Shown here piece after piece: positions 1 through 16,814 of a stretch of DNA of 24,000 nt (position 1 is the first letter of the stretch; each line of letters begins with the position of its first letter). The position numbers were made by a program, and so were the translations under genes. The notes under the pieces are model-generated. The model had not been told where the DNA came from and did no database searches. It saw only the letters and a program-made list of their open reading frames with translations. The stretch is from assembly GCF_033022775.1 (NCBI RefSeq), contig NZ_JAWJZI010000003.1, positions 441,185 through 465,184 on the forward strand, in the 5' to 3' direction. Origin of the DNA: Photobacterium rosenbergii (GTDB taxonomy: Bacteria; Pseudomonadota; Gammaproteobacteria; Enterobacterales; Vibrionaceae).

Positions 1-1
1 A

Positions 2-1426
2 GGTGCCGCCGCTGGTGCGGGCTTTGTACTAGGCCGAGATCCGGATGCCAATGTCGGCTGGGGGCGCACCGAAGCAGGCAAGGACATGTATTTCAACCGC
101 GAGCCTTTTCGGGTAGATGTTGCCCCAACGATGGAAGTGGTCAGTGAGCCAGTCCGTCCTGAATGGAGCGACTTCCTGTTCCACCGCACCCGCGCATTGG
201 GTAAAGAAATGGGCAATGGCTGGGTACCGACCAGAGATTGGCGTGATATTCCCAATGAGCAAGTACGCGAGTATTACTCCCGCCACCCTGAGCGCTGGGA
301 TGACATGTACCAGTCATTCGAGGAGAAAGCCAAGCACGATCAGAATATCGAACAGCACCGAGACCGATTTGCCTTGGCGTGGGCCTATTCTGCAGCTTAC
401 CTGAAAGGTAACAGCAGCAACTTCCCGCCAAAACCCAAAGGGCATCCTGAGGAGGTCGATTTCCAATGGGTAAAACGTGAGCCTCAGCCCTTTAAATCGC
501 CTAAGCACGCGTCTGAGCTTATCAAGAAGATGGCGTTCAAATTCGGCATGAGTATTGTCGGCATCACCAAGCTTGATCCGAGCTTCGTGTTCAAAAACAC
601 CATGCGCGGCATGCCAGGCTGGGACGAAAGCATTCCGAAGCATTGGAAGAATGTAATCATCTTCGGTACTCCCATGAACTGGGATCCGATGTACGCATCT
701 ATCGGTTACTCTACCTCCTATGATGGTTACTTCCGTGCTAAGAATGCCTCAGGATTAATGGCTGCCTTCCTTGGAGAACTAGGTTATGCAGCCCGCCCAC
801 AATGGCCGGGCTCAGACTACGAAATAGTCGTGCCTCCGTTGGCTATCCAAGCTGGAATGGGCGAAGCCGCCCGAAACGGGATCTTACTGACCCCAGAACT
901 AGGACCCAATATCCGCCTAGCCGCTGTGATCACCGATCTGGATCTAGAGCCAGACAAACCTATCGATACCAAAGTGAAGCACTTCTGTGAAGAGTGCAAA
1001 ATCTGTGCTGATTCCTGCCCGAGTGGTTCAATCAGCAAAGCCGACAAACCGGATGCCGTGGTTCGGGGCTACCGCAAGTTCGATTTCAATCAAGACAGCT
1101 GTTGGACCATGTGGCGTCAAGGTCCGACCGAAACCGCTATGGGGTGCCGGGTTTGTATCGCGGTCTGTCCATATACCCGAAAGAACAACTGGATCCATGC
1201 ACTGGTCAAGGAAACCGATCCACGCGATCCAACCGGGCTAACGCGTAAGACGCTATTAGCAATGCAGCATAATTTCTTCTACTACCCAGAGGCAGAAGCT
1301 TATCACGGCGACTGGAACGGCGGTCGATTTGCCGGCTACCATCAGCCCCCGGAATGGCTACGTAGTGAGGAATACCTCAAGGTCGAGAAGACATGGGACT
1401 ACGACGGTAACTGGGAGGGCTTCTAA
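2..1426 (+). CDS. rdhA: Reductive dehalogenase-like catalytic subunit (RdhA family), 5'-partial; the start lies left of the window
   Basis: Frame 2 is open from nt 2 into the listed ORF 86..1426. It reads GAAAGAGFVLGRDPDANVGW..., an Ala/Gly-rich hydrophobic stretch like the h-region of a Tat signal, so the M at 86 is probably internal. The C-terminal third has CEECKICADSCP (C-x2-C-x2-C-x3-CP, nt 986-1021) and C-x14-CRVCIAVCP (nt 1100-1170). This is the two Fe-S motif arrangement typical of RdhA. About 475 aa are visible. The rdhB- and rdhC-like genes lie immediately downstream. Confidence 0.7.
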   Translation, partial: GAAAGAGFVLGRDPDANVGWGRTEAGKDMYFNREPFRVDVAPTMEVVSEPVRPEWSDFLFHRTRALGKEMGNGWVPTRDWRDIPNEQVREYYSRHPERWDDMYQSFEEKAKHDQNIEQHRDRFALAWAYSAAYLKGNSSNFPPKPKGHPEEVDFQWVKREPQPFKSPKHASELIKKMAFKFGMSIVGITKLDPSFVFKNTMRGMPGWDESIPKHWKNVIIFGTPMNWDPMYASIGYSTSYDGYFRAKNASGLMAAFLGELGYAARPQWPGSDYEIVVPPLAIQAGMGEAARNGILLTPELGPNIRLAAVITDLDLEPDKPIDTKVKHFCEECKICADSCPSGSISKADKPDAVVRGYRKFDFNQDSCWTMWRQGPTETAMGCRVCIAVCPYTRKNNWIHALVKETDPRDPTGLTRKTLLAMQHNFFYYPEAEAYHGDWNGGRFAGYHQPPEWLRSEEYLKVEKTWDYDGNWEGF

Positions 1427-1743
1427 TGTTTCCGCAATCAACAATTTTGGACCCATTGTTCTGGATGGCTTTCGGTGCCTTGCAAGTACTGGTCTTTTCC
1501 GGGGCTAATCAGTGGGCCAAGCAATTCGAGTTAGGGATGAACTGGTGGAAATGGACACTGGTCGGCAGTTGGTGGGCTTCAATGATTCTCACCATTGCTG
1601 GGGCTTTCACCTTGCTGGGTGAAAACGAAGGCCTCGCAGGTTGGTACTTCCTCGGATTTGTCGGCACCGGGCTGATAATCGCTGGGGCTGTACTGCTCAG
1701 AATCCTTATCGCCTTGAAACCCAAGCAAGCCATCGAAAACTAA
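1426..1743 (+). CDS. rdhB: Small 3-TM membrane protein, RdhB-like anchor of the dehalogenase
   Basis: The protein is 105 aa with three predicted hydrophobic helices: ILDPLFWMAFGALQVLVFSGA, WTLVGSWWASMILTIAGAFTLLG and WYFLGFVGTGLIIAGAVLLRILIAL. It is translationally coupled to the upstream gene by a TAATG overlap at 1424-1428. The call rests on size, topology and position rather than a recognisable sequence signature. Confidence 0.55.
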   Translation: MFPQSTILDPLFWMAFGALQVLVFSGANQWAKQFELGMNWWKWTLVGSWWASMILTIAGAFTLLGENEGLAGWYFLGFVGTGLIIAGAVLLRILIALKPKQAIEN

Positions 1744-1778
1744 TCCAGATATTTAATCGATCACATAGGAAAAGGGCC

Positions 1779-3095
1779 ATGAGACATCTAACCGGTGCCT
1801 CATGGCTTTGGAGATATATGGAAAGAAAAACCAAACCCCGGCGCAATAACAACTTTGACAAGTTTGTCAGTGTATTTTCAATCTTGGCCTTGGCGTTTGC
1901 GTGGTATCTAGGCGGGCAACGCAGCAACCACTCCCAAACCCAGTTCTTCGACAGCATCCTCACCAGTGACGAACAGCTTATCGAAGCTGCTCCCCAGCTC
2001 TATCGGATCGCAACGGCTATTGAGAGCGCCCCAGAGTCAGAAACAACACAAGCCTCCAGCAAGTGGGTCAGCTTCGGCAAAGGTGTTGGCTACGGTGGTG
2101 AACTTACCGTTGGTGCGGTATTTACCCCACACGGCGATATTGAGACCATCGCTTTACTGAGTTCGAAAGAGACAACTTCTTATTTTGACAAAGTGGTCGA
2201 ACAGAAGCTTCCCGAATCATTGCTCGAGAAGAATATCAAAACAGCGCTAACGGCCGATGCAGTAACCGGTGCAACCCTGACTTCGGAAGCCTACATCCAG
2301 GCAATAAACCAAGCATCCGATCCTGTTCGCATGGCGCTTTTTGGGTACCAGTTCAGCGAAGCAAAGCCTGCCTGGCAATATATAAAATGGCTCGATGCCG
2401 CAGCGTTGGTGTTCTTCATTGCCGCTGTCTGGGTTAACCGTACCCGCTCTGAGCATAAAGCCAAAATAAATGCGACCTTGCTGGCTGGCTCTACCCTGAT
2501 ATTTGGTTTCTACTCGGCATCACTCTACTCGGCTTCCACCATGGGGAGCTTGGTGTTAGGGACATGGGTCAGCGGTGTCGCCAGTTACACCCCGTTTATT
2601 CTTCTGGTGCTCAGTATCGGCTATATCCTTTACTACAACCGTAACGTGTACTGCCAAAGCCTGTGCCCATTTGGCGCCGTGCAGCAGTGCCTAGCCAAGG
2701 TGGGTAAGGCAAAGGCATCACCTCTGCGCCAATCTTTTTTTATCTGGTTCCCGCGGTTCTTGCTACTCGCCACGCTTTGCCTTGGTGCCTACTACCGAAA
2801 CCCTGCCGCTTTCGTCTACGAGCCGTTCGGTATCGCCTTTGGCATGATTGGCGGCATGTATCTGTTTATCCTCACTGTGATGATCCTCCTAACATCGTTG
2901 ATCGTTCGTCGTCCGTGGTGCCAAAGCTTGTGTCCGATCAATACCTTGACCGACTTTGTCGTATTCAATAAACACTGGTTCAAACAACTGGCTAAGCCAA
3001 AGCGTGCCAAACAGAAGTACCGTCCAGAGACATCAGGCAAAAGAATTCCTACCAAAAATGTACCGGTAAGAGAACACGAAGAGGAAGCCTTATGA
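1779..3095 (+). CDS. rdhC: NosR/NirI/PceC-like FMN-binding polytopic membrane protein (RdhC-like)
   Basis: An FMN_bind-type motif DAVTGATLTSEAY sits at nt ~2255-2290, after one N-terminal TM helix. About 5 further TM helices follow, with two CQSLCP (C-x3-CP) motifs at nt 2652-2669 and 2919-2936, as in NosR/NapH/PceC proteins. The start was chosen at ATG 1779 (AGGAAAAGGG upstream); ATG 1818 (GGAG upstream) is an alternative. The listed ORF start at 1641 overlaps rdhB and is rejected. Confidence 0.72.
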   Translation: MRHLTGASWLWRYMERKTKPRRNNNFDKFVSVFSILALAFAWYLGGQRSNHSQTQFFDSILTSDEQLIEAAPQLYRIATAIESAPESETTQASSKWVSFGKGVGYGGELTVGAVFTPHGDIETIALLSSKETTSYFDKVVEQKLPESLLEKNIKTALTADAVTGATLTSEAYIQAINQASDPVRMALFGYQFSEAKPAWQYIKWLDAAALVFFIAAVWVNRTRSEHKAKINATLLAGSTLIFGFYSASLYSASTMGSLVLGTWVSGVASYTPFILLVLSIGYILYYNRNVYCQSLCPFGAVQQCLAKVGKAKASPLRQSFFIWFPRFLLLATLCLGAYYRNPAAFVYEPFGIAFGMIGGMYLFILTVMILLTSLIVRRPWCQSLCPINTLTDFVVFNKHWFKQLAKPKRAKQKYRPETSGKRIPTKNVPVREHEEEAL

Positions 3096-3316
3096 GACAG
3101 CGCATTTCGCTTATTTTTTACTGCTTGGCCTCTGTAGTTATCGTGCTACATATCGGCTCGAACCTGATGACATTGGGCAGTGCGGATCACCAGCACACTG
3201 TATTGCACTCAGTAACTCGCCAAACCGAAGCGCAGACTAAGATCGTTGAACAAAGCACAGCACCAACAGTCGATTTCCAGCAGATGGCAAAAGATCTAAC
3301 CCAAGAAAAGTACTAG
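3092..3316 (+). CDS. Hypothetical 74-aa single-pass membrane protein with a His-rich stretch (SADHQHTVLH)
   Basis: An ATGA start/stop overlap with the rdhC-like gene (3092-3095) is preceded by GAGGAAG 4 nt upstream. The N-terminus is positively charged (MRQR) and is followed by one TM helix (ISLIFYCLASVVIVLHIGSNLM) and a hydrophilic tail. I recognise no family. Confidence 0.45.
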   Translation: MRQRISLIFYCLASVVIVLHIGSNLMTLGSADHQHTVLHSVTRQTEAQTKIVEQSTAPTVDFQQMAKDLTQEKY

Positions 3317-3325
3317 AAGAAAATA

Positions 3326-4198
3326 ATGACAACCAAGTGTATCCCCCTCGAGCGGCTGAAAAGAGAAGTGAACCTGATCAATCCGTTCATTAACAAGATT
3401 TCAGATCTCTATTCAGTGAGGGGGCTAGACGTCGTTTCCCGGCCACATCGACTAAACTTCAGTGCCTTAATCTACATAACAGAAGGGCAAGGTCTGCACT
3501 ACGTCGAACACCAACAGCACCGGCTGCGGACCGGCTCCATGCTAGTATTGGGCAAAAACCAGATCCACGCTTTTGCCAAAGAGCGCTCAGTCGATGGCTA
3601 CGTGCTGTCGTTTGATTGCAGCTTCCTATCGAACGGCAGTAACGACCCTTACTTTGATCTATTGCTTTCCGCTATGGTCCACATCAACTGCGTACATCAT
3701 GCCGACGAAGATATCGGGCCGCTTTTCAGTGCGATGGTCAATGAATTCGAATCAACGTCCGAGTTCAAAGACGAAATTATTCGTAACCTGATCCGCTCAA
3801 TCATACTCAAGGCGGTTGTTCCCAGCTATCAGCACCAGAAGCAATCATCCCAACGCATCGGCAACAACGACTACTACCGACTGAAGAAATATATCGATGA
3901 GCATTTTCAGGACAGACCAACCGCTGGCGACATCGCTCTGGCTTTGGGCAAAAGCACCAAACAGTTGGATAAGCTAGCCAAAGATCATGCTGGTCTTAGC
4001 GTCAAAGAATTGGTTGATGAAAGGGTACTGGTCGAAGCCAAACGCCTACTGGCTTTCAGTCAGTATTCGATTTCAGATATCGCAAACCGGCTTGGCTTCA
4101 ATGAAGCGACTAACATGACGAAGTTTTTCAAGCGCCATACCGATGTCAACCCGAAGGATTTCAGGCAACTGTGTAAAATAGGGCTACACCAAAAATAG
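3326..4198 (+). CDS. AraC/XylS-family transcriptional regulator
   Basis: The protein is 290 aa. The N-terminus is cupin-like (ALIYITEGQGLHYVEHQQHRLRTGSMLVLGKNQIHAF). The C-terminus has the AraC dual HTH (ISDIANRLGFNEATNMTKFFKRHTDVNPKDFR). It starts 10 nt after the preceding ORF on the same strand. Confidence 0.85.
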   Translation: MTTKCIPLERLKREVNLINPFINKISDLYSVRGLDVVSRPHRLNFSALIYITEGQGLHYVEHQQHRLRTGSMLVLGKNQIHAFAKERSVDGYVLSFDCSFLSNGSNDPYFDLLLSAMVHINCVHHADEDIGPLFSAMVNEFESTSEFKDEIIRNLIRSIILKAVVPSYQHQKQSSQRIGNNDYYRLKKYIDEHFQDRPTAGDIALALGKSTKQLDKLAKDHAGLSVKELVDERVLVEAKRLLAFSQYSISDIANRLGFNEATNMTKFFKRHTDVNPKDFRQLCKIGLHQK

Positions 4199-4221
4199 CC
4201 CCGTACTAAAAACGTTAAGGC

Positions 4222-5166
4222 TCAAACTTGCCCATTGAACTGGTTGATAATCAGCTCCCTGAGCCATTTATGGCTCGGATCGCTGTCGAACTGTTTGTTC
4301 CACAGCAAGAACTGGCCACCAGGCTCGAGGTCGAGCGGTAAGCGCTTTACCACGATATCGGCGCTATCGACAAACTCCCGAACACACTCATAAGGGTATG
4401 TAGTGAGTAAGTCACTCTTTTCACACATCCTTACTGCACTGGCAATGTCCGACATGTTCACCGCATTGTCGAGCTTGAGGCGCTTAGCCTCCAGCACTTC
4501 ATGAAGCAGCCAAGTATTCACTCCGCCAGTAACCACTTGGATATGGCGGTATTTTAAAAACGTTTCTAGGCTCCACTCCTCCTGCAAAGCTGGATGACCT
4601 TTGCGCATCACACAAGAAGAAGCATCCCGCAATAACTCGACATAACTGAGCGAGTCTGGAATCGTCTGAACATGGGTTTTCGCCCGGCCATCCCACTCGA
4701 AAATGCCGATGCCAAAGTCCACTTCCCTTCTTTGCAGGCGCTGGATACTGTTTTCGTTCCAATCGCGGCTGTTGATACTGATATTCGGTGCTTCGGCTAG
4801 CGCCTCAGGCAGAAACCGCGGGTAAATGGTCGAGTAAGCCGTTTCAATCAGGTCGATATTAAATGTACGGGTGCTACTTTCCGGCTCGAACCGATCGGGA
4901 TCGCTGAGCTGATCAACCTGCAGCAAAATCTGTTGCAGCTTGGTTTCCAGAGACAAGGCTTTCGGTGTCGGCAGCAAGCCTTTAGATTCCCGTTCAAATA
5001 ATGGGTCATCAAACACTTGGCGCAACTTTGTCAGCTGTTTGCTCACTGCAGACTGTGACAAGTACAGCTTATCTGCTGCCCGGCTAACACTGCGCTCTTG
5101 CAATAACACATACAGGCAAATCAACAGATTCATATCATTTTTTAACAGGCGGGATAAATCGATCAT
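4222..5166 (-). CDS. LysR-family transcriptional regulator
   Basis: The N-terminal HTH reads DMNLLICLYVLLQERSVSRAADKLYLSQSAVSKQLTKLRQVFDDPLFER. The start is assigned to ATG at 5166, preceded by AAAGGAA 4 nt upstream, rather than the TTG at 5184 used by the ORF track. It is divergent from the acetyltransferase gene. Confidence 0.85.
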   Translation of the reverse strand: MIDLSRLLKNDMNLLICLYVLLQERSVSRAADKLYLSQSAVSKQLTKLRQVFDDPLFERESKGLLPTPKALSLETKLQQILLQVDQLSDPDRFEPESSTRTFNIDLIETAYSTIYPRFLPEALAEAPNISINSRDWNENSIQRLQRREVDFGIGIFEWDGRAKTHVQTIPDSLSYVELLRDASSCVMRKGHPALQEEWSLETFLKYRHIQVVTGGVNTWLLHEVLEAKRLKLDNAVNMSDIASAVRMCEKSDLLTTYPYECVREFVDSADIVVKRLPLDLEPGGQFLLWNKQFDSDPSHKWLRELIINQFNGQV

Positions 5167-5296
5167 GATATTCCTTTGATTCAACTGTTTGATGAGTAAA
5201 TGTCACTTCTAATCATATCATGGTGCCGCTATAGTGCTTGCTAGGATCTACCAAAGGCTGTTCAACCGGCCCAATTTAAAACAGATTGGAAAGACA

Positions 5297-5860
5297 ATGA
5301 CCGAATTCGAAAAAATGCTTGCTGGTGAAGACTTTGACGGCGACGACCAAGGGATTAATGAGATTCGTAATAATGCAGCGCATCTATTGATGACCCTTAA
5401 CCAAACGATTGATGATACCCAGCGCAGCGAACTACTGAGTGAGCTAATGGGTGACATGCCGGCCTCAAGTATCATTCGTTCTCCTTTCCACTGCGAATTC
5501 GGTAAAACCATCTTCATCGGCGAACAGACATTCCTCAATATGAATGTCACCATGCTGGACGGCGCAAAGATCACCATAGGTAACAATGTGCTGATCGGCC
5601 CGAATACCCAGTTCTACTGCGCAAGCCACTCGCTTGATTATCGAGAGCGCCGCAAGTGGGCGACTATCTGCAAGCCTATTACTGTTGAAGATGATGTTTG
5701 GATTGGTGGTAACGTCGTGATTAACCAAGGTGTGACCATCGGTGCCCGTTCAGTGATTGCCGCCAACTCGGTAGTCAACTCAGACGTACCGCCAGATAGC
5801 CTCTTTGGCGGAACACCTGCCAAACTGATCCGCCGTATTCACGAAAATGAACAAGACTAA
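5297..5860 (+). CDS. maa: Maltose/galactoside O-acetyltransferase-like hexapeptide-repeat enzyme
   Basis: The N-terminus MTEFEKMLAGE and the hexapeptide region (ITIGNNVLIGPNTQFY...DDVWIGGNVVINQGVTIGARSVIAANSVV) resemble E. coli Maa along the full length as I recall it. The start is at ATG 5297, with GGAAAG upstream. The ORF-track start at 5234 adds 21 unlikely residues. Confidence 0.8.
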   Translation: MTEFEKMLAGEDFDGDDQGINEIRNNAAHLLMTLNQTIDDTQRSELLSELMGDMPASSIIRSPFHCEFGKTIFIGEQTFLNMNVTMLDGAKITIGNNVLIGPNTQFYCASHSLDYRERRKWATICKPITVEDDVWIGGNVVINQGVTIGARSVIAANSVVNSDVPPDSLFGGTPAKLIRRIHENEQD

Positions 5861-6963: not shown

Positions 6964-8193
6964 TTAAAAATTCCAGCGAATCTGGGCAAATAGTAAGGTG
7001 CTGGCAGTTTCACCGAACAAGCTATTACCGTTGCCGTCAAAGCGCTGGATAACCCCAAGCAATTGCCAATCATCTGCCAGCGAGTAGCTATTACTGGCGC
7101 CGACAAAGTACGACCCATCATCATAATAGGAGGCAGAGAGCGTCAGGCGGCTAAGGGGGGTAACATCCAGGCTAGCATCGGCATACGCCGTCCAACGGGT
7201 AAAACTCAATGTTCTGGCTGTTAGCGGCAAGTTCAAAAAGGCAATGGCATTTTGTGGGCCTTGCGGGTTAGAGATATATAGCACAGCACCGCGAGCCATC
7301 CAGTTGCGCTGGCCACCGAAGCTGTAATCCGTTTCGAGGGTGGCAACCGCTGTGTGTTCAAGCTCTTCATCTTGCCATTGCTCTTTGGTCGGTTCAAACC
7401 AAGTGAACTCCCCCCTGACACCTGCGCCTTGGACATCTCCGGCAAAACCTGCCCCGACAATAGTATCCAGCAGCGATTTTCCGACTAGCAGTTGATAATC
7501 CCACCCCTTGTGATTAAACAAGTAGCGCCCTGCATAACTGTTCAAATCACTGTCGGAATTTGGGTTAACGACCACATCGGCCGAGCTGGCAAAGCCAAGT
7601 TTGCGACTAACCATAACGGCGTCGCTGCCTGCCCGCTCTTCATAGTCAAAATCATAGATAGAATAGGAATTGAAAATATCGTTCGGGTTCCACAAAGTAG
7701 CCATTGCCCAGTTTATGCGAAAACGGCCGCCACGAACCTGCCAGTCATCGCGCTGCCAATTGACATACAGGCGATCAAACTGGCTGTTCCCCACCACGCC
7801 TTTCTTGTCCAGCCAGTTTTTCGACAAGTCCATATACCCAGTATCTATCGCCACCAGATCGCCATAGCCGGGCAGCTCTGCCGTATCGCCAAACAGTAAG
7901 CGGTTGCGCATCCCAGCATTGAAACGCAGATGTTCATTGAAGCGATATTCGAAGTTGAAGCGCTGGTGAATAAGGTGGTCAAGTCCGTTCGAGCCACCGT
8001 CTGGCAATGTCCCGGTTGCCATATACTTGACGTAGCCGTTGAGATCCCAGTCTTTTTCAGGCTCTAACCCCGGGATCTGGGCATTAGCCACCGGAGATAT
8101 CACGCCCAGCAAAGCAACTGCAGAAACTGAAACTATCCGTAATAGTCTTTTTTCGTACTCTCCCGCTACCACACCCTGTTTTATCCAGTTCAC
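6964..8193 (-). CDS. Putative outer-membrane beta-barrel protein, last gene of the tetR/LolA-like/ABC operon
   Basis: A signal peptide (LLRIVSVSAVALLGVISPVANA-QIP) is present. The sequence has many alternating amphipathic stretches and a C-terminal aromatic residue (IRWNF), typical of OMP barrels. The GTG start at 8193 overlaps the ATPase stop (GTGA). The family is not recognised. Confidence 0.6.
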   Translation of the reverse strand: MNWIKQGVVAGEYEKRLLRIVSVSAVALLGVISPVANAQIPGLEPEKDWDLNGYVKYMATGTLPDGGSNGLDHLIHQRFNFEYRFNEHLRFNAGMRNRLLFGDTAELPGYGDLVAIDTGYMDLSKNWLDKKGVVGNSQFDRLYVNWQRDDWQVRGGRFRINWAMATLWNPNDIFNSYSIYDFDYEERAGSDAVMVSRKLGFASSADVVVNPNSDSDLNSYAGRYLFNHKGWDYQLLVGKSLLDTIVGAGFAGDVQGAGVRGEFTWFEPTKEQWQDEELEHTAVATLETDYSFGGQRNWMARGAVLYISNPQGPQNAIAFLNLPLTARTLSFTRWTAYADASLDVTPLSRLTLSASYYDDGSYFVGASNSYSLADDWQLLGVIQRFDGNGNSLFGETASTLLFAQIRWNF

Positions 8194-8873
8194 TGGCGAC
8201 GATCCTCTTTGAGTTGCCCGTCTTCAAATACAATGACCCTCTTAGCCCGCTTGATCACTCTAGGATCATGGGTGGAGAAAATAAAGGTGGTGCCTTCCTT
8301 CTCATTGAGCTGCTGCATGATATCAAGCAGCTCGGAGGTGCTCTGGGCGTCAAGGTTCGCCGTTGGCTCATCGGCCATCACAAAACGGGGCCGGGGGGCG
8401 AGGGCCCTGGCTACCGCGACCCGCTGCTGCTGACCGCCCGACAGCTTGGCCGGACGCTTGTGCTGTTGATCTTCCAGCCCCACTTGGGTCAATAGCTCAC
8501 CCGCCCGTTGCCGGCAGGTTGATTCATCATGCCCTTGCAGCTGCATCACGAATTCGACATTTTCCAGCGCAGTCAGTACTGGTAGCAAGCTGTAATCTTG
8601 GAAGATAAACCCAACATGATCCCGCCGGAAGGCAATGAGTTCCTTCTCATCCAGCTGGCAAATATCGCAGTTATCAATAAGAACACTGCCCGAGCTTGGG
8701 CTGTCGATGCCGCCAATCATATTGAGCAAAGTTGTCTTCCCCGAGCCAGAAGGCCCCATGATCGCGACAAACTCCCCCTGTTCGACAGTAAGATCGAGAT
8801 CTTTTACCGCATGCACCGGGAAATCACTGTCAGCGTTATAGATTTTGCACAAGTTATTGGTTGAAATAGTCAT
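8190..8873 (-). CDS. ABC transporter ATP-binding protein (LolD/MacB-type)
   Basis: Motifs present are Walker A GPSGSGKTT, the signature LSGGQQQRVAVARAL, Walker B FVMADEPT and the H-loop STHD. The start is at ATG 8873 (MTISTNNLCKIY), 13 nt after the permease stop. The ORF-track start at 8972 overlaps the upstream gene. Confidence 0.9.
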   Translation of the reverse strand: MTISTNNLCKIYNADSDFPVHAVKDLDLTVEQGEFVAIMGPSGSGKTTLLNMIGGIDSPSSGSVLIDNCDICQLDEKELIAFRRDHVGFIFQDYSLLPVLTALENVEFVMQLQGHDESTCRQRAGELLTQVGLEDQQHKRPAKLSGGQQQRVAVARALAPRPRFVMADEPTANLDAQSTSELLDIMQQLNEKEGTTFIFSTHDPRVIKRAKRVIVFEDGQLKEDRRQ

Positions 8874-8886
8874 TAGTTCATCTCTG

Positions 8887-10146
8887 TCAGTGCTTATCGG
8901 CCATGGCATCAACAGGCCGCTGCTTGAGTATTTGCCGTGCAGGATAAAGCGCCGCCAACAGGCTGGCGGCAACCACCGTGAAGAAAATCATTTGGTATTC
9001 GGCAAAGGTGACCTGTGGAAACAGCAAGGTATCGACGCCAAATGCCCCCAAGCCTTCAGCCATTGCCCCAAGCGGGATCCCGGTGTACTGCAATACGCTG
9101 ATAAGCATAAGGCTCGCCAGCAGGCCAAGACTTGCCCCGGAGATCCCAAGCCATGCGGTTTCAAGCATGATCAGCAAAAACACACGGTGTTTTTGCATCC
9201 CGACCGCCATCAGCACACCGAACTCGCGGGTGCGCTCGAAAACAGACATCAGCATGATGTTGACGATGCCAAACCCCATTGCCACCACAAAAATCCCCAG
9301 CATAATGGCATTGCTAAGCCCCTGCTGATTGATCAGCGAGGCCAGCAAGGGCTGCACCTGTTGCCAGTCCCTGATCCGGTTACCAGTTTGAATGGCTTCG
9401 ACGCCTCTCAATCGCTGGGCTAGCAACATGGCAGCGTCATCGCTATCAAGCAAAATGGCCACCTCGTGTGCACCTTCAATTCCGGCCAATGCGGTAAGAT
9501 CGGCACGGCGAACAAAGACATTGCTGTCATCAAAACTGGTAGACGGCGTTTTGAAGATCCCCCTTACCCTGAAAGCCGCCCCGCTAACATCGCCAGCGGC
9601 ATCGGTAAAGGTGAGTACCACCTTGGAGCCAATACGCAGTTTAAGACGAGACGCAGTTTTCTCGGAAACCAGTACCGGGTTCCGTCCATCATCACTTAAC
9701 CACTCTCCTTGAGTAATATTGTCGGCCAGCGGGGTCACCGTCGATTCGGCTTGGGTATCAATACCATTAATACGAACGCCGCGGTTGCTGCGCGCTGATG
9801 CCACCATGCCATCGGCAACAAACCGGGCTGACCAACCTTTCAAACCAGGAAGTGCCGCAACTGCCTTCTCGACCTCAGACAGATCAACAATGGTGTGCTT
9901 GATATCAGGATCATCAAGATAAAGTGCACTCTGAACTTGAATATGGCTGGTCTGCCAGGCAATGGCATTGTGGATCATGCTGCCGTACATACCAGACAGG
10001 AACCCCATCATGGCAACGACCCCCATCAGGCCAAACACCATGGCGCCAAGCATGATCCCTGTACGCAATTTATTGCGCCAAAGGTTACGCCACGCTAGTT
10101 TGAAAAGCATATCTGTTCGCAAATAACTTCGCTTATCAGTTCGCAT
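8887..10146 (-). CDS. FtsX/MacB-type ABC permease (LolE/LolC-like), paralogue 2
   Basis: The protein is 419 aa. It has an N-terminal TM after LFKLAWRNLWRNKLRT, a large periplasmic domain of about 230 aa, and three C-terminal TM helices with the FtsX-type ERTREFGVLMAVGM motif. ATG 10146 has a consensus AAGGAGG 5 nt upstream and overlaps the upstream permease gene by 11 nt. Confidence 0.85.
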   Translation of the reverse strand: MRTDKRSYLRTDMLFKLAWRNLWRNKLRTGIMLGAMVFGLMGVVAMMGFLSGMYGSMIHNAIAWQTSHIQVQSALYLDDPDIKHTIVDLSEVEKAVAALPGLKGWSARFVADGMVASARSNRGVRINGIDTQAESTVTPLADNITQGEWLSDDGRNPVLVSEKTASRLKLRIGSKVVLTFTDAAGDVSGAAFRVRGIFKTPSTSFDDSNVFVRRADLTALAGIEGAHEVAILLDSDDAAMLLAQRLRGVEAIQTGNRIRDWQQVQPLLASLINQQGLSNAIMLGIFVVAMGFGIVNIMLMSVFERTREFGVLMAVGMQKHRVFLLIMLETAWLGISGASLGLLASLMLISVLQYTGIPLGAMAEGLGAFGVDTLLFPQVTFAEYQMIFFTVVAASLLAALYPARQILKQRPVDAMADKH

Positions 10147-11365
10147 GGCCGCCTCCTTTTAGCGCTTTGACGACTTCCAACCGGCGTATTCGCCACATCG
10201 GGTACATCAGGCAAACCACCAGCAGCACCAAAACAATAAGAATTTGATCAAGCATCAGCACTGGGTCCAGCGCCATTGGCAGGATAGGATCCCAGCCCAT
10301 TTCCAAGACCAGCTCGGCGGTTTCCCCTGTCAGTGTGATCGGGTTGAAATAAAACCACACCAACACAGGCAGGGTGATCACCATACCCATTGCTATCCCA
10401 AGGAAGCCTATCATCAAGGACTCCAGCCCAATCAAGGTGATGATTTTGCGCTTTAGCATACCGGTTGCTAGCATGACGCCAAATTCTCGCTGGCGCTCCA
10501 AAGTCATCATCAGCAAGGTGGCAAACAAACCGAAACCAACAACGCCGTACAGCAGGTACATGATGAAAATGCCGCCGGCCTTATCCATCAGAATTTGCTG
10601 GGCCATTTCCGGTGCCAAATCTTGCCAATCCCGCACATTGACCGTGTCGCCGTAAGCTTGTTTGAGCTGAGCCTCCGTCGCATTTAGTTGGCCAAGGGGC
10701 TTGATATCCAATACCCATGCCGTTACCTGCTCTTCGGTACTGTAAAGGGTTTGGGCGAGTGCGATTGGCATATACACCAGCTGGCTATCGAGCTGGGCAA
10801 CGGGGAAGTCCAAGATCCCTTTGACCCGGTAAAGCCCTGCTGCGGTCTGCCCACGATAACCCTGGCCGTAGAGGATCAGCTCATCCCCAACGCCTAAACC
10901 AAAATAGCGAGCAACGCCTTCACCGATGAGCACTTGCTGATCGTCGGGTGATAGGAAATCTCCCCTCTCCAAACGATTGGAGATGTTGGAATAACTGTCT
11001 TCTGCTTGAGTGTCGACCCCGAGCACCATCACGCCTTTGGACTTGTCCCCAGAGGCCGCTAAAGCAAATGATTCAATACGCGGTAAGACTCGGATAACAG
11101 TCGGGTTGGTTGACACAGGTTCCAAGAAAGCCCTATCCATCGGCAACAGATCATCAATGCTGTTGCTTTCGGCAAACTCTGGGTGCTGTAGCTGGATAAG
11201 GCCGGTATAGAAACGAGCCGCGTTTTCGATATTGTTGGCGTACGTCCCTTCCTGCAGGCTACGCATAAACAGCGACAAGGCCAATGTCAAAGCCAGGGCA
11301 GAAGCCGTCAGGATAGTGCGCCGCTTCTGCCGCCAGATATTACGCCAAGCTAATTTCAATAACAT
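10136..11365 (-). CDS. FtsX/MacB-type ABC permease (LolC/LolE-like), paralogue 1
   Basis: The protein is 409 aa with N-terminus MLLKLAWRNIWRQKRRT and the same architecture as paralogue 2, including the ERQREFGVMLATGM motif. AAGGAAG lies 4 nt upstream of ATG 11365. Confidence 0.85.
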   Translation of the reverse strand: MLLKLAWRNIWRQKRRTILTASALALTLALSLFMRSLQEGTYANNIENAARFYTGLIQLQHPEFAESNSIDDLLPMDRAFLEPVSTNPTVIRVLPRIESFALAASGDKSKGVMVLGVDTQAEDSYSNISNRLERGDFLSPDDQQVLIGEGVARYFGLGVGDELILYGQGYRGQTAAGLYRVKGILDFPVAQLDSQLVYMPIALAQTLYSTEEQVTAWVLDIKPLGQLNATEAQLKQAYGDTVNVRDWQDLAPEMAQQILMDKAGGIFIMYLLYGVVGFGLFATLLMMTLERQREFGVMLATGMLKRKIITLIGLESLMIGFLGIAMGMVITLPVLVWFYFNPITLTGETAELVLEMGWDPILPMALDPVLMLDQILIVLVLLVVCLMYPMWRIRRLEVVKALKGGGHAN

Positions 11366-11395
11366 GGTTCTTCCTTGTTGACCCGCTCCCAGCCC

Positions 11396-12145
11396 TTAAT
11401 CACGCAGCGACTTCATCTGGCTTTGGGAGAAGAAACTTTCTTTAATCGGGAAGTTGAACTGGGCTTGATGGGTAATGATTTCCGTTTTATTGCCCGGTTT
11501 ATCCGCAGGGATCATTTCCATCCGCGAGGCCACCTGGCGCCCGCCCATATATTTCACGTCGTAAGTGTTCATGGTATTGATCAGATCATCGAATTCGTCA
11601 TAGAACTCAACTTTGCGTTGCAGGTAGGTCTTCTTGGAGACCCATAGCCGAACCTTGCTCCAGACTACCGGCGCATTAGGCTTAGCAATGGCATCAATCA
11701 CCCAGCTGGCGTCATTATCAAACACTTCGCCACCCACCATTTTGTGGGTGTAATCCACCACAATGGATGACTGGTTGATCAAATCATCATTGGTAAAGTC
11801 TGAGCCCATCCAGGACTGACCCAGCATCGAAGGGGCGATTTTTACCACCCGCTCGATACTCGGCAACCAATTCCACATTTCCCGGTAGCGCTTGAGTGAC
11901 GCGCTGCCTTTGTCTTTGGCGGGCGCGGTTACTAACACCAAGGATAAATCTTGCCCTTTAGTCCAGCTTTTCATGCTCATGGTGCGGGTCCAGTCTGGAC
12001 GCACAATGCGCATGGTCGCTTCGGCATAACTGGAGTCACCCCGCATCTGCTGATCCGACTTTCTGACTATTGAGGTTGCCGACTCTGCCATCGCCCAAGC
12101 TGGAAGGCAGGCCAGGATAACCAACAAAACCTTAAGTGATTGCAT
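11396..12145 (-). CDS. Periplasmic LolA-like protein (outer-membrane lipoprotein-sorting protein family)
   Basis: A signal peptide (MQSLKVLLVILACLPAWAMA-ES) is present. The pattern MRIVRPDWTRTMSMKSWTKGQDLSLVLVTAPAKDKGSASLKRYREMWNWLPSIERVVKI matches what I recall of LolA_like domain proteins. The start is at ATG 12145, with AAGGAGG upstream overlapping the tetR stop. Confidence 0.62.
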   Translation of the reverse strand: MQSLKVLLVILACLPAWAMAESATSIVRKSDQQMRGDSSYAEATMRIVRPDWTRTMSMKSWTKGQDLSLVLVTAPAKDKGSASLKRYREMWNWLPSIERVVKIAPSMLGQSWMGSDFTNDDLINQSSIVVDYTHKMVGGEVFDNDASWVIDAIAKPNAPVVWSKVRLWVSKKTYLQRKVEFYDEFDDLINTMNTYDVKYMGGRQVASRMEMIPADKPGNKTEIITHQAQFNFPIKESFFSQSQMKSLRD

Positions 12146-12155
12146 TAACCCCTCC

Positions 12156-12836
12156 TTATTCCGTAAACCATGCGTGCAGTAGTTGATCATTGATCAAAGG
12201 CATACTGCCTGGCTTCGCCCCAACCATACGCTCAAGCACTAACTGAGTCGCTTTTACTTCTACAACAACCTCATCAAGTAAATCTGACATTTTGTCGGTG
12301 TTTAGCATTTTGCGGGTGAGCTCTTCCGAAAAGCCGTTAAGTACGCTGACCATCAACCTGGCGGTGACCGTGGTAGAAGGTGCATCAAACACCTTTTCTT
12401 GATTACCCTGGCACAAAATGACTTCGTAATAGCCTGCGAGCAAAGCACTGACTTTTTGCATGAAGTTATGCTTTAGCTGCAGATTTTCATCCATATTGAT
12501 GATCTTAAAGAAGCCCAGCATGATGTCTTTCTGACCAATTTCCCATTGATTAGTCCGACGCAACAGAGTCTCCCATTTGGTTAACGCATTGAGGTTGGGA
12601 TCCTCTACCAAGCCCCCGATCACCTGGCGGTACTGCTCCAGCATGTCATCACTCCACGCCTCCAGCACCGCTTGCTTGGAATCAAAATGATGGTAAAACG
12701 CCCCTTTGGACACCCCCACATGCTGGATAAGATCATTGACCGAGGTATTGGCATAGCCTTTAGAAAAAAACAGCGCATTGGCTGCAGCAATGAATTCTGC
12801 CCGCCGCTCCTGCGGCGACTTTACGACTCTTGGCAT
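12156..12836 (-). CDS. TetR/AcrR-family transcriptional repressor, first gene of the operon
   Basis: The N-terminal HTH reads RRAEFIAAANALFFSKGYANTSVNDLIQHVGVSKGAFYHHFDSK. The start is at ATG 12836, with AAGGAAAGGGG upstream. The ORF-track start at 12911 would translate through the operator palindrome. Confidence 0.85.
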   Translation of the reverse strand: MPRVVKSPQERRAEFIAAANALFFSKGYANTSVNDLIQHVGVSKGAFYHHFDSKQAVLEAWSDDMLEQYRQVIGGLVEDPNLNALTKWETLLRRTNQWEIGQKDIMLGFFKIINMDENLQLKHNFMQKVSALLAGYYEVILCQGNQEKVFDAPSTTVTARLMVSVLNGFSEELTRKMLNTDKMSDLLDEVVVEVKATQLVLERMVGAKPGSMPLINDQLLHAWFTE

Positions 12837-12853
12837 ACCCCTTTCCTTTACAG

Positions 12854-12870
12854 ACCGACCGACGGTCGGT
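12854..12870 (-). promoter_or_regulatory. Candidate TetR operator: perfect palindrome ACCGACCG-N-CGGTCGGT
   Basis: A perfect 8-1-8 inverted repeat lies 18 nt upstream of the tetR start codon and 8 nt downstream of the predicted -10 hexamer. Confidence 0.5.
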
Positions 12871-12878
12871 ATATGAAA

Positions 12879-12907
12879 AGCATATTCCTGATTGATATAT
12901 TTTTCAA
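12879..12907 (-). promoter_or_regulatory. Predicted sigma70 promoter of the tetR operon
   Basis: On the minus strand, TTGAAA (12907-12902) is followed by a 17-nt spacer and TATGCT (12884-12879). This is a pattern match only. Confidence 0.35.
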
Positions 12908-13071
12908 TCAAAAGGTTCTAGCTCACTAATGAACAAAAGAGCCACCACTTTCGTAATAGGTAACGTGGGCCGTTAAGTAATAAAACGACTTGACGGCTAA
13001 CCACATAGCAGCCATTGCATAACTCCAGCGTCTGGCAATGACAACCGAGAGAGTATTCAAGTGAGGTTTAC

Positions 13072-16045: not shown

Positions 16046-16189
16046 TCAATTATCCCCCAATGCCACCTGATGCCATGCTCTAGTGAGTCTTATTTTGCTA
16101 GCAGGCGGTGTTTATTTATTTCAATTAACAAGCTCGTTTCTTAGCGGGGAGAAGAATAATAAGTAAAACTTTAACTAAAATAGATCACC

Positions 16190-16423
16190 ATCACAGTAAA
16201 AAATTTCAGTAAAACAAATAACAAATACAAAATGAATACTATTAATAAACCATTGAAATTAAATTCAATATGGTGGCTTTTCGTGGAATTAACATCACAG
16301 TGTAATTTTTACTAACTTTTATTTTTTTGAAAGCAGATCACTGTGTGTAAATAAGTTTCTTTGTTACCTGAATAAACGGAAATAATTGCAGGATAACGAC
16401 GCTAATGGACTCGGTATCACAGT
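16190..16423. repeat. Dispersed octamer ATCACAGT: three exact copies plus the variant ATCACTGT
   Basis: Exact copies are at 16190-16197, 16294-16301 and 16416-16423. The variant is at 16337-16344. Two copies extend to TGGA-N7-TCACAGT (16284-16301 and 16406-16423). All lie in the AT-rich region upstream of the glycosidase gene. Confidence 0.5.
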
Positions 16424-16766
16424 AGCTGGTTCGACCATACTCATCATAAACAGGCTTAAAAGCCCAAACGTAACGCTAGCTTCTCTTATGTAACAGTAAA
16501 TCCCCATCGATATTGCCTCATGCAGTGCAAAAATCAGCCTGTATATTTATGCAAGCAGTTTATAGCGGAAAAAAGCCAGCCTTCGCTCACGAAGCTAGTC
16601 ACAGAGTCCTGCTAGAGATTAACAATCACCAAGCCTATAAGGAGGCTGCTTCCTTTTTTAAGCGATCAAATAAGACTTTCTGGCTGTTGTTATCCGCAAA
16701 TACGGTAGGTTTGGAAGAGGAAATATCGGGGCAAGAGGCTGCAATGAAAGGTTAAACGCACAAAAA

Positions 16767-16790
16767 AAGCCAGCTCATTTAAGCTGGCTT
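16767..16790 (-). terminator. Rho-independent terminator of udp
   Basis: The stem is AAGCCAGCT/AGCTGGCTT with loop CATTTA. On the minus strand it is followed by TTTTTTTG, and it lies 25 nt downstream of the udp stop. Confidence 0.8.
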
Positions 16791-16814
16791 TCTATAAATT
16801 GGGTATAGAGCTAA

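Follow-up and report, generated by a model that had tools for sequence, protein, structure and literature searches.

Organization of the locus

We examined a 24,000 nt stretch of the genome of Photobacterium rosenbergii (NZ_JAWJZI010000003.1, positions 441,185–465,184; "the window" below means this whole stretch), the first part of which, positions 1–4198, carries a cassette of genes for a reductive dehalogenase of the RdhABC type. The host belongs to the P. lutimaris group of Photobacterium. A preliminary description of the sequence had listed five elements in the cassette, and all five were found on the + strand at the coordinates that it gave. They are rdhA (2..1426), for the catalytic subunit, 5'-truncated by the window edge and retaining 474 of ~504 codons; rdhB (1426..1743), for a 105-aa membrane anchor with three helices; rdhC (1818..3095), for a NosR/PceC-type membrane flavoprotein of 425 aa; an open reading frame (ORF) for a 74-aa single-pass membrane protein (3092..3316); and a gene for an AraC/XylS-family regulator of 290 aa (3326..4198). 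The start of rdhB overlaps the rdhA stop (TAATG), the 74-aa ORF overlaps the end of rdhC (ATGA), and a spacer of 9 nt (3317–3325) separates the 74-aa ORF from araC. The gene after araC encodes a LysR regulator and lies on the opposite strand.

Scanning one genome per species with a peptide pattern gave 56 loci in other genomes (referred to by L numbers), and the recurrence of the same gene order in them argues that the arrangement is not due to chance. In these relatives a gene for a tetratricopeptide repeat (TPR) protein and the promoter lie to the left of rdhA, so the operon in the window is truncated. An exact-sequence search of the assembly collection with the RdhB of the window gave no match; features to the left of the window edge are described below from the orthologous loci and lie outside the window itself. 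Gene content, family membership, fold, motif conservation, synteny, purifying selection and the promoter motifs conserved in relatives were each established here. We are highly confident that the genes form a genuine reductive dehalogenase operon of the RdhABC type, and consider it fairly probable that the window contains the 3' four-fifths of an operon for a predicted complex that is exported by the twin-arginine translocation (Tat) system, membrane-anchored and quinol-dependent, with a corrinoid/[4Fe-4S] reductive dehalogenase as its enzyme.

The catalytic subunit

The rdhA reading frame (frame 2) has no stop codon between base 2 and 1424–1426, where it ends, and begins with GAAAGAGFVLGRD (2..40), the remainder of a Tat signal made up of its Ala/Gly-rich h-region and its c-region. 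Both of the iron-sulfur (Fe-S) motifs reported in the preliminary description are present: the first is CEECKICADSCP (CxxCxxCxxxCP; 986..1021), and the second is split, C367...CRVCIAVCP, over 1100..1171 (C367 at 1100–1102; CRVCIAVCP at 1145–1171). The twin-arginine motif, expected here as SRRDFLK, and the start codon fall outside the window, 30 rdhA codons being missing and the RR position lying ~20 codons to the left of the edge; in L028, for example, rdhA starts with GTG at 7827, which is 30 codons before the window-equivalent position 7917. The upstream RR motif that the preliminary description had called for is found in the orthologues: SRR(D/N)FLK precedes an identical h-region in essentially all orthologues, including those at 96–97% identity, and SRRDFLKLGGVAAATATV directly precedes in orthologues the stretch with which the window opens.

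The protein falls among the reductive dehalogenases by profile, sequence and fold. Its top profile match was TIGR02486, the curated reductive dehalogenase model, at 167.7 bits (cutoff 160.35), whereas the QueG model TIGR00276 gave 56.2 bits against a cutoff of 200. The best PDB sequence matches were PceA of Sulfurospirillum multivorans (4uqu, 1.6e-31), PceA of Desulfitobacterium hafniense (8q4h) and NpRdhA; QueG was 20 orders of magnitude weaker than PceA in the same search. An AlphaFold (AF2) model built from 43 homologues had a pLDDT of 86.5 and a pTM of 0.88, and the top 36 Foldseek matches of this model in the PDB were all reductive dehalogenases (PceA 8q4h and 4ur3, NpRdhA), a fold that includes the corrinoid-binding core. 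The dehalogenases matched the model at E 5e-17 to 6e-15 with TM 0.5–0.63, and QueG at E 1e-6 with TM 0.35.

Residue conservation was judged on an alignment of the 43 homologues (A2). When aligned with PceA of S. multivorans by phmmer, Tyr243 (codon 728..730) and Arg305 (codon 914..916) fall on the catalytic Tyr246 and on Arg305; Y243, R305, all Fe-S cysteines (among them C367, C382, C385 and C389) and P390 are invariant in the homologues. The menaquinone-pocket segment of D. hafniense PceA, S486-W487-x-K489-x3-W493-x-H495 (chain offset 48, verified against the published residue list), aligns with P390-Y391-x-R393-x3-W397-x-H399, of which R393, W397 and H399 are invariant in the same set; the part facing K489...W493..H495, RKNNWIH, is encoded at 1178..1198. 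The sequence alignment to PceA covers the C-terminal two-thirds of RdhA only.

The membrane anchor

The 105-aa ORF with three membrane segments that had been read after rdhA was confirmed; it starts within TTCTAATGTTT, where the TAA stop of rdhA and the ATG of rdhB share one base. The hydrophobic helices of this protein, as of RdhC and the 74-aa protein, were called by a simple hydropathy scan. Across 15 orthologues from several genera the mean column identity of RdhB is 76%, and the motif GENEG (1618..1632), an ExE motif within the loop that joins helix 2 to helix 3, is invariant in 15/15 sequences. The protein is 46% identical (E 6e-28) to the RdhB of Desulfoluna, which carries a precomputed match to PF27193 (VcrB). 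Pfam and NCBIfam scans gave no family for RdhB, the Pfam set in use being one without PF27193 (the known members from L057 and L058 were unmatched as well). The only PDB match of an RdhB profile was PceB (8q4h_C), a weak one (E 2.2) over the full length, in which GENEG was aligned with SEREY, the ExE motif (E61/E63) of PceB. We count this match as supportive, and do so only because it was the single match and the ExE motifs align.

RdhC and a small conserved partner

The NosR/PceC-like protein of the preliminary description was borne out. Its gene ends at 3095 and encodes TGATLT (2265..2282), an FMN (flavin mononucleotide)-attachment motif, and two copies of CQSLCP (2652..2669, residue 279, and 2919..2936, residue 368). 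The mechanically listed start, TTG 1641, overlaps rdhB; ATG 1818, preceded by GGAGA, gives a short Lys/Arg-rich N-terminus as found in orthologues, and an alternative ATG at 1779, preceded by AGGAAAAGGG, would give 438 aa. Pfam matches were FMN_bind (7.8e-11) and Fer4_5 in two stretches (1e-15). The RdhC family was defined by an FMN motif [S/T]G[A/S]TX[S/T], two CX3CP motifs, six helices, an FMN domain between helices 1 and 2, and an rdhA gene in the genome (Buttet et al. 2018). The protein has the FMN-binding motif in this form and both CX3CP motifs, and rdhA lies in the same operon; the hydropathy scan gave five clear helices and a weaker one near residues 215–235, with the FMN domain between the first and the second. 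RdhC is 30% identical over its full length to that of Desulfoluna, and a PDB sequence search found no relative of it.

The 74-aa ORF had been described as a coupled membrane ORF and as an orphan. It is indeed coupled, its ATG overlapping the TGA of rdhC within TTATGAG, and it encodes one N-terminal helix, but it is no orphan, since an ORF of this kind follows rdhC in 44/47 copies. In these 44 it is 63–81 aa long, starts -10 to +70 nt from rdhC, and carries N-terminal Arg/Lys residues and a single helix, usually with (I/V)D(Y/F)K at the C-terminus; cassettes without rdhC do not have it. Its ratio of nonsynonymous to synonymous change (dN/dS) of 0.07–0.28 indicates purifying selection. ORFs of like size and topology, with an overlapping start, also follow rdhC in Desulfoluna, Halodesulfovibrio, Desulfuromusa and a Bacteroidota metagenome-assembled genome (MAG). 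A hidden Markov model (HMM) of the gammaproteobacterial small ORFs scored ~10 bits, which is not significant, against the same-position ORFs of Deltaproteobacteria and Bacteroidota, and BLASTP found nothing between them; we therefore claim positional and architectural (size, topology) equivalence across phyla and not homology. Pfam and NCBIfam scans gave no family for the 74-aa ORF. A FliO match was dropped as hydrophobic-helix noise, its 20.3 bits being under the cutoff of 22. The 74-aa protein is thus a conserved partner of rdhC that has no family name.

Cassettes without rdhC and without the small ORF, of the order TPR-rdhA-rdhB-araC, were seen at L022, L035, L037, L048, L049, L052 and L054. 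In Halodesulfovibrio (L058:9459-10472) a gene for an ApbE flavin transferase comes directly after the small ORF, a hint bearing on RdhC flavinylation.

The gene upstream of rdhA in relatives

A cytoplasmic TPR protein of ~370 aa, with a non-TPR N-terminal region of ~110 aa, is encoded ~16 nt upstream of rdhA in ~50/56 loci (for example L028:6671-7810 and L001:6671-7810); in one subgroup (L039-L043, L051, L053) the gene stands between rdhB and rdhC. The preliminary description had remarked that no RdhT was visible, and this stands: no trigger-factor-like gene was found in the window or in the flanks of the relatives. The TPR protein is a candidate substitute for RdhT.

TPR chaperones that pair with AraC-type activators (SicA-InvF, IpgC-MxiE) are established in the regulation of type III secretion, and most gammaproteobacterial loci have the TPR gene at one end of the cassette and araC at the other. 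Instead of serving RdhA as a chaperone for maturation or Tat proofreading, the TPR protein could accordingly co-activate the AraC regulator. We consider this quite unlikely, and less likely than a role linked to RdhA: a TPR gene also stands directly before rdhA in Desulfoluna, Halodesulfovibrio and Desulfuromusa, whose clusters have a sigma-54 activator in place of AraC, so it tracks rdhA and not the type of regulator, and the subgroup just mentioned has it between rdhB and rdhC.

The AraC regulator and the promoter region of relatives

That the last gene of the cassette encodes an AraC regulator, as had been proposed, was confirmed by Pfam (HTH_18, 2e-18; AraC_binding, 7.9e-10): the protein has the C-terminal double helix-turn-helix and the N-terminal ligand-binding/dimerisation domain, here a cupin-type sensor, of the AraC/XylS family. 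As the preliminary description said, it is present instead of the usual RdhK, and no gene for a regulator of the CRP/FNR family was found in the window or in the cassette. The araC gene is adjacent to the cassette and co-oriented with it in ~53/56 loci with differing outer flanks, and the protein is a probable effector-dependent activator of the operon, as judged from its domains and position. Its PDB matches were AraC/MarA-type DNA-binding domains only and gave no clue to a ligand. The best NCBIfam match was HpaA, the regulator of 4-hydroxyphenylacetate use, at 94.5 bits; the score is far under the cutoff of 274.65, and identity as an HpaA equivalog was excluded. The sensor domain is nonetheless most similar to that of HpaA, which hints, if weakly, that the ligand is phenolic.

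Upstream of the TPR gene, 27/33 related loci contain TTGAT-N4-ATCA (chance expectation 0.016 per region), typically 121–126 nt before the TPR start codon. An alignment of this promoter region was gap-free over 18 loci of six genera. It shows the invariant TTGAT-N4-ATCA box, 13 variable nt, the direct repeats (A)AGGG-N8-TACC and GGG-N8-(T/A)ACC exactly 21 bp apart, an invariant ACCTT and then a -35-like TTGACC(A); the conserved span (for example L028:6545-6654 and L001:6545-6654) includes TTTTGACCA. TTGAT-N4-ATCAA is the FNR consensus, and two 17-bp direct repeats one 21-bp step apart and abutting the -35 are the classical arrangement of the AraC family. If TTGACC is a -35 element, the centre of the FNR-type box falls near -94, a position like that of the CRP site of araBAD. 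Global FNR may act on the upstream box in the relatives, and the layout suggests dual control, by anoxia through FNR and by an effector through the AraC protein of the cassette. To the left of the window we would expect the box TTGATCAAAATCA, ~121 nt before the TPR start, followed by two GGG-N8-TACC repeats.

Promoter and terminator scans of positions 1–5400 showed nothing informative within the operon and no notable site between its genes. The whole window was scanned for an FNR-type box and for the double direct repeat, neither of which was found; nothing thus points to an internal promoter as a second site of regulation. The spacer between the 74-aa ORF and araC is ~80 nt in the closest relatives (L001, L028) against the 9 nt seen here, so that part of the intergenic DNA appears to be lost from this genome.

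Distribution, selection and surroundings

The cassette is carried by Photobacterium, Vibrio, Aliivibrio, Enterovibrio, Thaumasiovibrio, Shewanella, Ferrimonas, Psychromonas and Endozoicomonas. The closest RdhA proteins, at 96–97% identity, are those of P. lutimaris, P. satsumensis, P. minamisatsumaniensis and P. makurazakiensis, whose flanks are syntenic with the rest of the window. Many from Vibrio, Aliivibrio, Enterovibrio and Thaumasiovibrio are at 83–91%, and those of other Photobacterium, Shewanella atlantica, S. canadensis, Psychromonas, Endozoicomonas and Ferrimonas at 53–75% (the two Shewanella orthologues at 73–74%). The outer flanks vary between genera while the cassette is constant, and rdhB and rdhC travel with rdhA in every genus examined; the concern that they might belong to an unrelated cluster has thus fallen away. 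Estimates of dN/dS were ~0.01 for rdhA and 0.04–0.05 for rdhB, with synonymous sites saturated (pS ~0.7). Compared with L001, L014 and L028, RdhA is 96–97% identical in protein sequence, RdhC 66–78% and the small ORF 55–74%, the latter two evolving much faster. The GC content of the cassette equals that of the rest of the window, so composition gives no sign of recent transfer.

Beyond the Gammaproteobacteria, the next RdhA matches are from marine Deltaproteobacteria at 46–50% identity. The closest studied enzymes are RdhA3 of Desulfoluna spongiiphila DBB (P0046; 46%) and those of Halodesulfovibrio marinisediminis (49%) and Desulfuromusa kysingii (47%) (P0033 and P0056), aligned over 97% of the length; P0046 is identified as RdhA3 because the published rdhA3 RT-qPCR (reverse transcription quantitative PCR) primers match inside the gene in L057. 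Desulfoluna rdhA3 is induced 2000-fold by 2,6-dibromophenol (2,6-DBP). H. marinisediminis and D. kysingii respire 2,6-DBP and not 2,6-dichlorophenol, and their RDase A transcripts are induced by the substrate; in these closest studied relatives 2,6-DBP serves as the terminal electron acceptor, and a protein yield can be measured.

Several genomes hold two or three cassettes, such as Vibrio sp. HN007 with three and an Endozoicomonas MAG with two lying ~16 kb apart, and L036 has two rdhA genes in tandem. Elsewhere in the window, positions 6964–12911 (- strand) form an operon-like block with genes for a TetR regulator, a LolA-like protein, two MacB/FtsX-type permeases, an ABC ATPase and a 409-aa, outer-membrane-like protein without a Pfam family; the block adjoins the cassette in the P. 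lutimaris group only. Positions 16046–16814, between genes for a YgjK-like glucosidase and a nucleoside phosphorylase, are ~770 bp of AT-rich DNA (GC ~0.39) with no ORF of >=100 aa and no Rfam or tRNA match. A tRNA scan of the window found none, and its other 20 kb hold no cobamide, apbE, Tat or quinone genes.

Proposed mechanism and its alternatives

The complex would work as follows. Pre-RdhA would be loaded in the cytoplasm with a cobamide and two [4Fe-4S] clusters, perhaps with the help of the upstream TPR protein, then exported by Tat to dock on the periplasmic side of the three-helix RdhB. The C-terminal segment of RdhA (R393/W397/H399) and the ExE loop of RdhB would together form a quinol-oxidising site like that of the D. 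hafniense PceA2B2 complex. Electrons would pass through the Fe-S clusters to the corrinoid, where the halide would be removed with Tyr243 as proton donor and Arg305 as its partner. RdhC, with FMN covalently bound on the Thr of TGAT and with its two CX3CP motifs, may act with the 74-aa partner as an optional module for electron supply or reactivation. Expression would be set by the AraC-type protein, which would activate the operon promoter on binding an effector, probably a phenolic one, and the FNR-type box would restrict it to anoxia. The most likely class of substrate would be natural ortho-bromophenols or similar marine organobromines; we treat an ortho-bromophenol substrate as a lead from relatives of 46–49% identity, not as a finding, and regard a substrate of the bromophenol type as quite possible but short of probable. 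As to growth-coupled organohalide respiration by this system, we lean slightly toward it.

Several observations weigh against this account. In the catalytic subunit, Asn272 of S. multivorans PceA is aligned to Pro, in a stretch where the local alignment is uncertain. Three of the elements invoked, namely the RR motif, the TPR gene and the promoter with its box, are placed upstream in this genome by comparison with relatives and would lie outside the window. The TPR proteins of Gamma- and Deltaproteobacteria have repeat-level similarity only (23% over 150 aa). An Rfam scan of the window and of 8 related loci detected neither a cobalamin riboswitch nor any other RNA, and the 24 kb encode no cobamide-supply or apbE genes. 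RdhC is missing from 7–9 related cassettes; moreover, in the published view PceA2B2 is the minimal respiratory module, and the role of PceC, which is 50-fold less abundant than PceA, is still open even in the model organisms. We have called RdhC and the small protein optional because these 7–9 cassettes lack both genes and because of that minimal module. According to one source (PMC11921367), specificity can differ between near-identical reductive dehalogenases; the substrate range is thus not transferable at 46–49% identity. The searchable literature, finally, contains no activity, cofactor or expression data for any member from the Vibrionaceae.

In another reading, the same complex would detoxify bromophenols from hosts, algae or sediment in the periplasm, or would dehalogenate these toxic compounds co-metabolically, with no energy conserved. 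Such a role would suit hosts that are facultative and have many other electron acceptors, and several carriers are animal-associated (Endozoicomonas, Aliivibrio, V. scophthalmi, V. ichthyoenteri); the effector-specific AraC-type control resembles that of catabolic or stress operons, too. We think this unlikely as the whole explanation, in that no variation is seen in the quinone-pocket residues and the RdhB ExE motif, which are linked to the oxidation of quinol and the release of protons; the FNR-type box fits a respiratory regulon; and in the closest studied relatives 2,6-DBP is a terminal acceptor, with a protein yield that can be measured. Detoxification and respiration are not mutually exclusive.

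Two further explanations question the activity itself. The protein could be a member of the RdhA superfamily that reduces a non-halogenated natural product, so that "dehalogenase" would be a name only: most RdhA homologues are uncharacterised, the non-dehalogenating QueG branch (epoxide reduction) is detectably related, and it is just the C-terminal two-thirds that align to PceA by sequence. This we find very unlikely given a score above the curated dehalogenase cutoff, with QueG far under its own, the invariance of the catalytic Tyr and Arg of PceA, and the company of Tat export, RdhB and RdhC, hallmarks of respiratory dehalogenases; the relatives at 46–49% identity are, besides, induced by bromophenols and linked to their debromination. 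Least probable of all, and to our minds extremely so, is that a horizontally acquired cassette lies silent or decaying in this genome. The patchy occurrence among Vibrionaceae species, the variable flanks, the fragmentation of some loci (e.g. L053, L055) and the shortened spacer before araC (9 nt against ~80 nt in the nearest relatives) would fit decay, but all five ORFs are intact with coupled starts, the promoter motifs are gap-free across genera, and the dN/dS values given above for rdhA and rdhB, together with 0.1 for the small ORF, are low, with synonymous sites saturated.

There is also a broader proposal that we regard as doubtful when taken whole: a self-contained module for organobromine respiration, spread by horizontal gene transfer, with the TPR protein and the small protein as required new components. 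The module would consist of the promoter (FNR-type box and AraC-type repeats), the TPR gene, rdhA, rdhB, rdhC, the 70-aa gene and araC, and would have spread among Vibrionaceae, Shewanella, Ferrimonas, Psychromonas and the animal symbiont Endozoicomonas. In the proteobacterial and Bacteroidota complexes, on the same proposal, the TPR protein would be a maturation chaperone that replaces RdhT and the small protein a subunit of the RdhC module.

Were this true, facultative marine heterotrophs respiring natural organobromines under anoxia would form a large sink of the marine halogen cycle that has so far been overlooked. Most studies of organohalide respiration use strict anaerobes; bacteria of the Vibrio family grow fast, are genetically tractable and are abundant in sediments, guts and symbioses. 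If the system is active, it would offer a tractable host in which to study the role of RdhC, the maturation of corrinoid enzymes without RdhT and the sensing of organohalides, and would widen the set of organisms that recycle natural bromophenols. The handles gained are the promoter with its FNR box and direct repeats, the AraC sensor, the TPR gene and the conserved 70-aa partner of rdhC.

Comparison with known systems

The preliminary description implied a degree of novelty that was overstated. RdhA proteins of Photobacterium and Shewanella appear in trees from 2009, and RdhC proteins of Vibrio (16), Photobacterium (11) and Ferrimonas (10) were catalogued in 2018, their hosts being listed as candidate organohalide respirers (Buttet et al.). 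With rdh genes of Photobacterium, Vibrio, Shewanella and Ferrimonas already published, the present cassette is a useful lead rather than a surprise. The TPR-rdhABC cassette and its link to bromophenol respiration have likewise been published for marine Deltaproteobacteria. For the version carried by the Vibrionaceae, we found in the searchable literature no account of the activity, the regulation or the make-up of the cluster. Apparently new, as far as we found, are the small ORF coupled to rdhC, the promoter with FNR box and repeats, the systematic association with AraC and the breadth across gammaproteobacterial genera.

Among marine Gammaproteobacteria, the rdh genes of Shewanella sediminis, that for PceA included, are alike in comprising a Tat-type RdhA and an RdhC; the peptide-pattern scan did not retrieve this species. 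It is said to be the only gammaproteobacterium with a studied RdhA, and the 2013 work of Lohner and Spormann reportedly concerned dechlorination of tetrachloroethene (PCE) rather than demonstrated growth-coupled respiration, a point in favour of the detoxification reading.

RdhC resembles NosR and NapH in its periplasmic FMN_bind domain, its polytopic membrane part and its paired CX3CP motifs, and it has weak NCBIfam matches to NapH, NosR and RnfG. The scores, however, are 24–27 bits against cutoffs of 213–1000, and RdhC is without the C-terminal ferredoxin-like domain of NosR; we thus rejected membership in NosR and place the protein in the RdhC family.

The control region of the relatives recalls araBAD, in that a palindrome of the CRP/FNR family lies ~58 bp upstream of the -35-like TTGACC and two 17-bp repeats with 21 bp spacing abut the -35. 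It differs in that the box fits FNR (TTGAT-N4-ATCA) and not the CRP consensus, and in that its elements are predicted ones in a region outside the window.

With the PceABCT system of D. hafniense and Dehalobacter restrictus (8Q4H, PMC10624902) the locus has in common the RdhA fold (Foldseek E 5e-17), a three-helix RdhB with ExE on a P-side loop, the correspondence of K489/W493/H495 to R393/W397/H399, and an RdhC with an FMN domain and two CX3CP motifs. Sequence identity is ~20%, however; there is no trigger-factor-like PceT, with the TPR gene found instead in relatives; an extra small ORF follows rdhC; and control is by AraC, whereas it is constitutive or RdhK-dependent there.

The nearest known systems are the "clade 5" clusters, which combine a gene for a sigma-54 activator and a TPR gene with the rdh genes and form a clade defined by RDase A identity >68% (Liu & Haggblom 2018, PMC6299228); systems of this type are the rdhA3 cluster of D. 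spongiiphila and those of H. marinisediminis, D. kysingii and Desulfovibrio bizertensis (Liu & Haggblom 2018, PMC6299228; Peng et al. 2020, PMC7031245). At 46–49% RdhA identity the present enzymes fall under that limit and so represent a sister group of clade 5, not a member of it. In Desulfuromusa (L060:8515-9669) a Phenol_MetA_deg outer-membrane gene and tatA come after the small ORF, a hint of a phenolic substrate. The gene order is the same in both groups, as seen in the contexts of L057, L058 and L060 and, for the TPR gene on the gammaproteobacterial side, in the relatives of the window: TPR, Tat-type rdhA, rdhB, rdhC and a ~70-aa, one-helix ORF overlapping the rdhC stop; RdhB and RdhC are 46% and 30% identical, respectively, and the marine habitat is common to both. 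The differences lie in the regulator gene, which is a 3' araC here and a divergently oriented gene for a sigma-54 enhancer-binding protein there (L057, L058, L060); in the promoter, which in the gammaproteobacterial relatives shows features of the sigma-70 type with the FNR-type box and repeats and has no -24/-12 elements; in RdhA, which is ~50 aa shorter here (504 vs 555–560); and in the hosts, facultative anaerobes here and sulfate or sulfur reducers there, with activity demonstrated in the latter and the system known from its genes in the former. The Bacteroidota cluster has a MarR gene and no TPR gene. The enzyme module is therefore common to these lineages, each of which has a regulator of its own, and in the Gammaproteobacteria that regulator is AraC.

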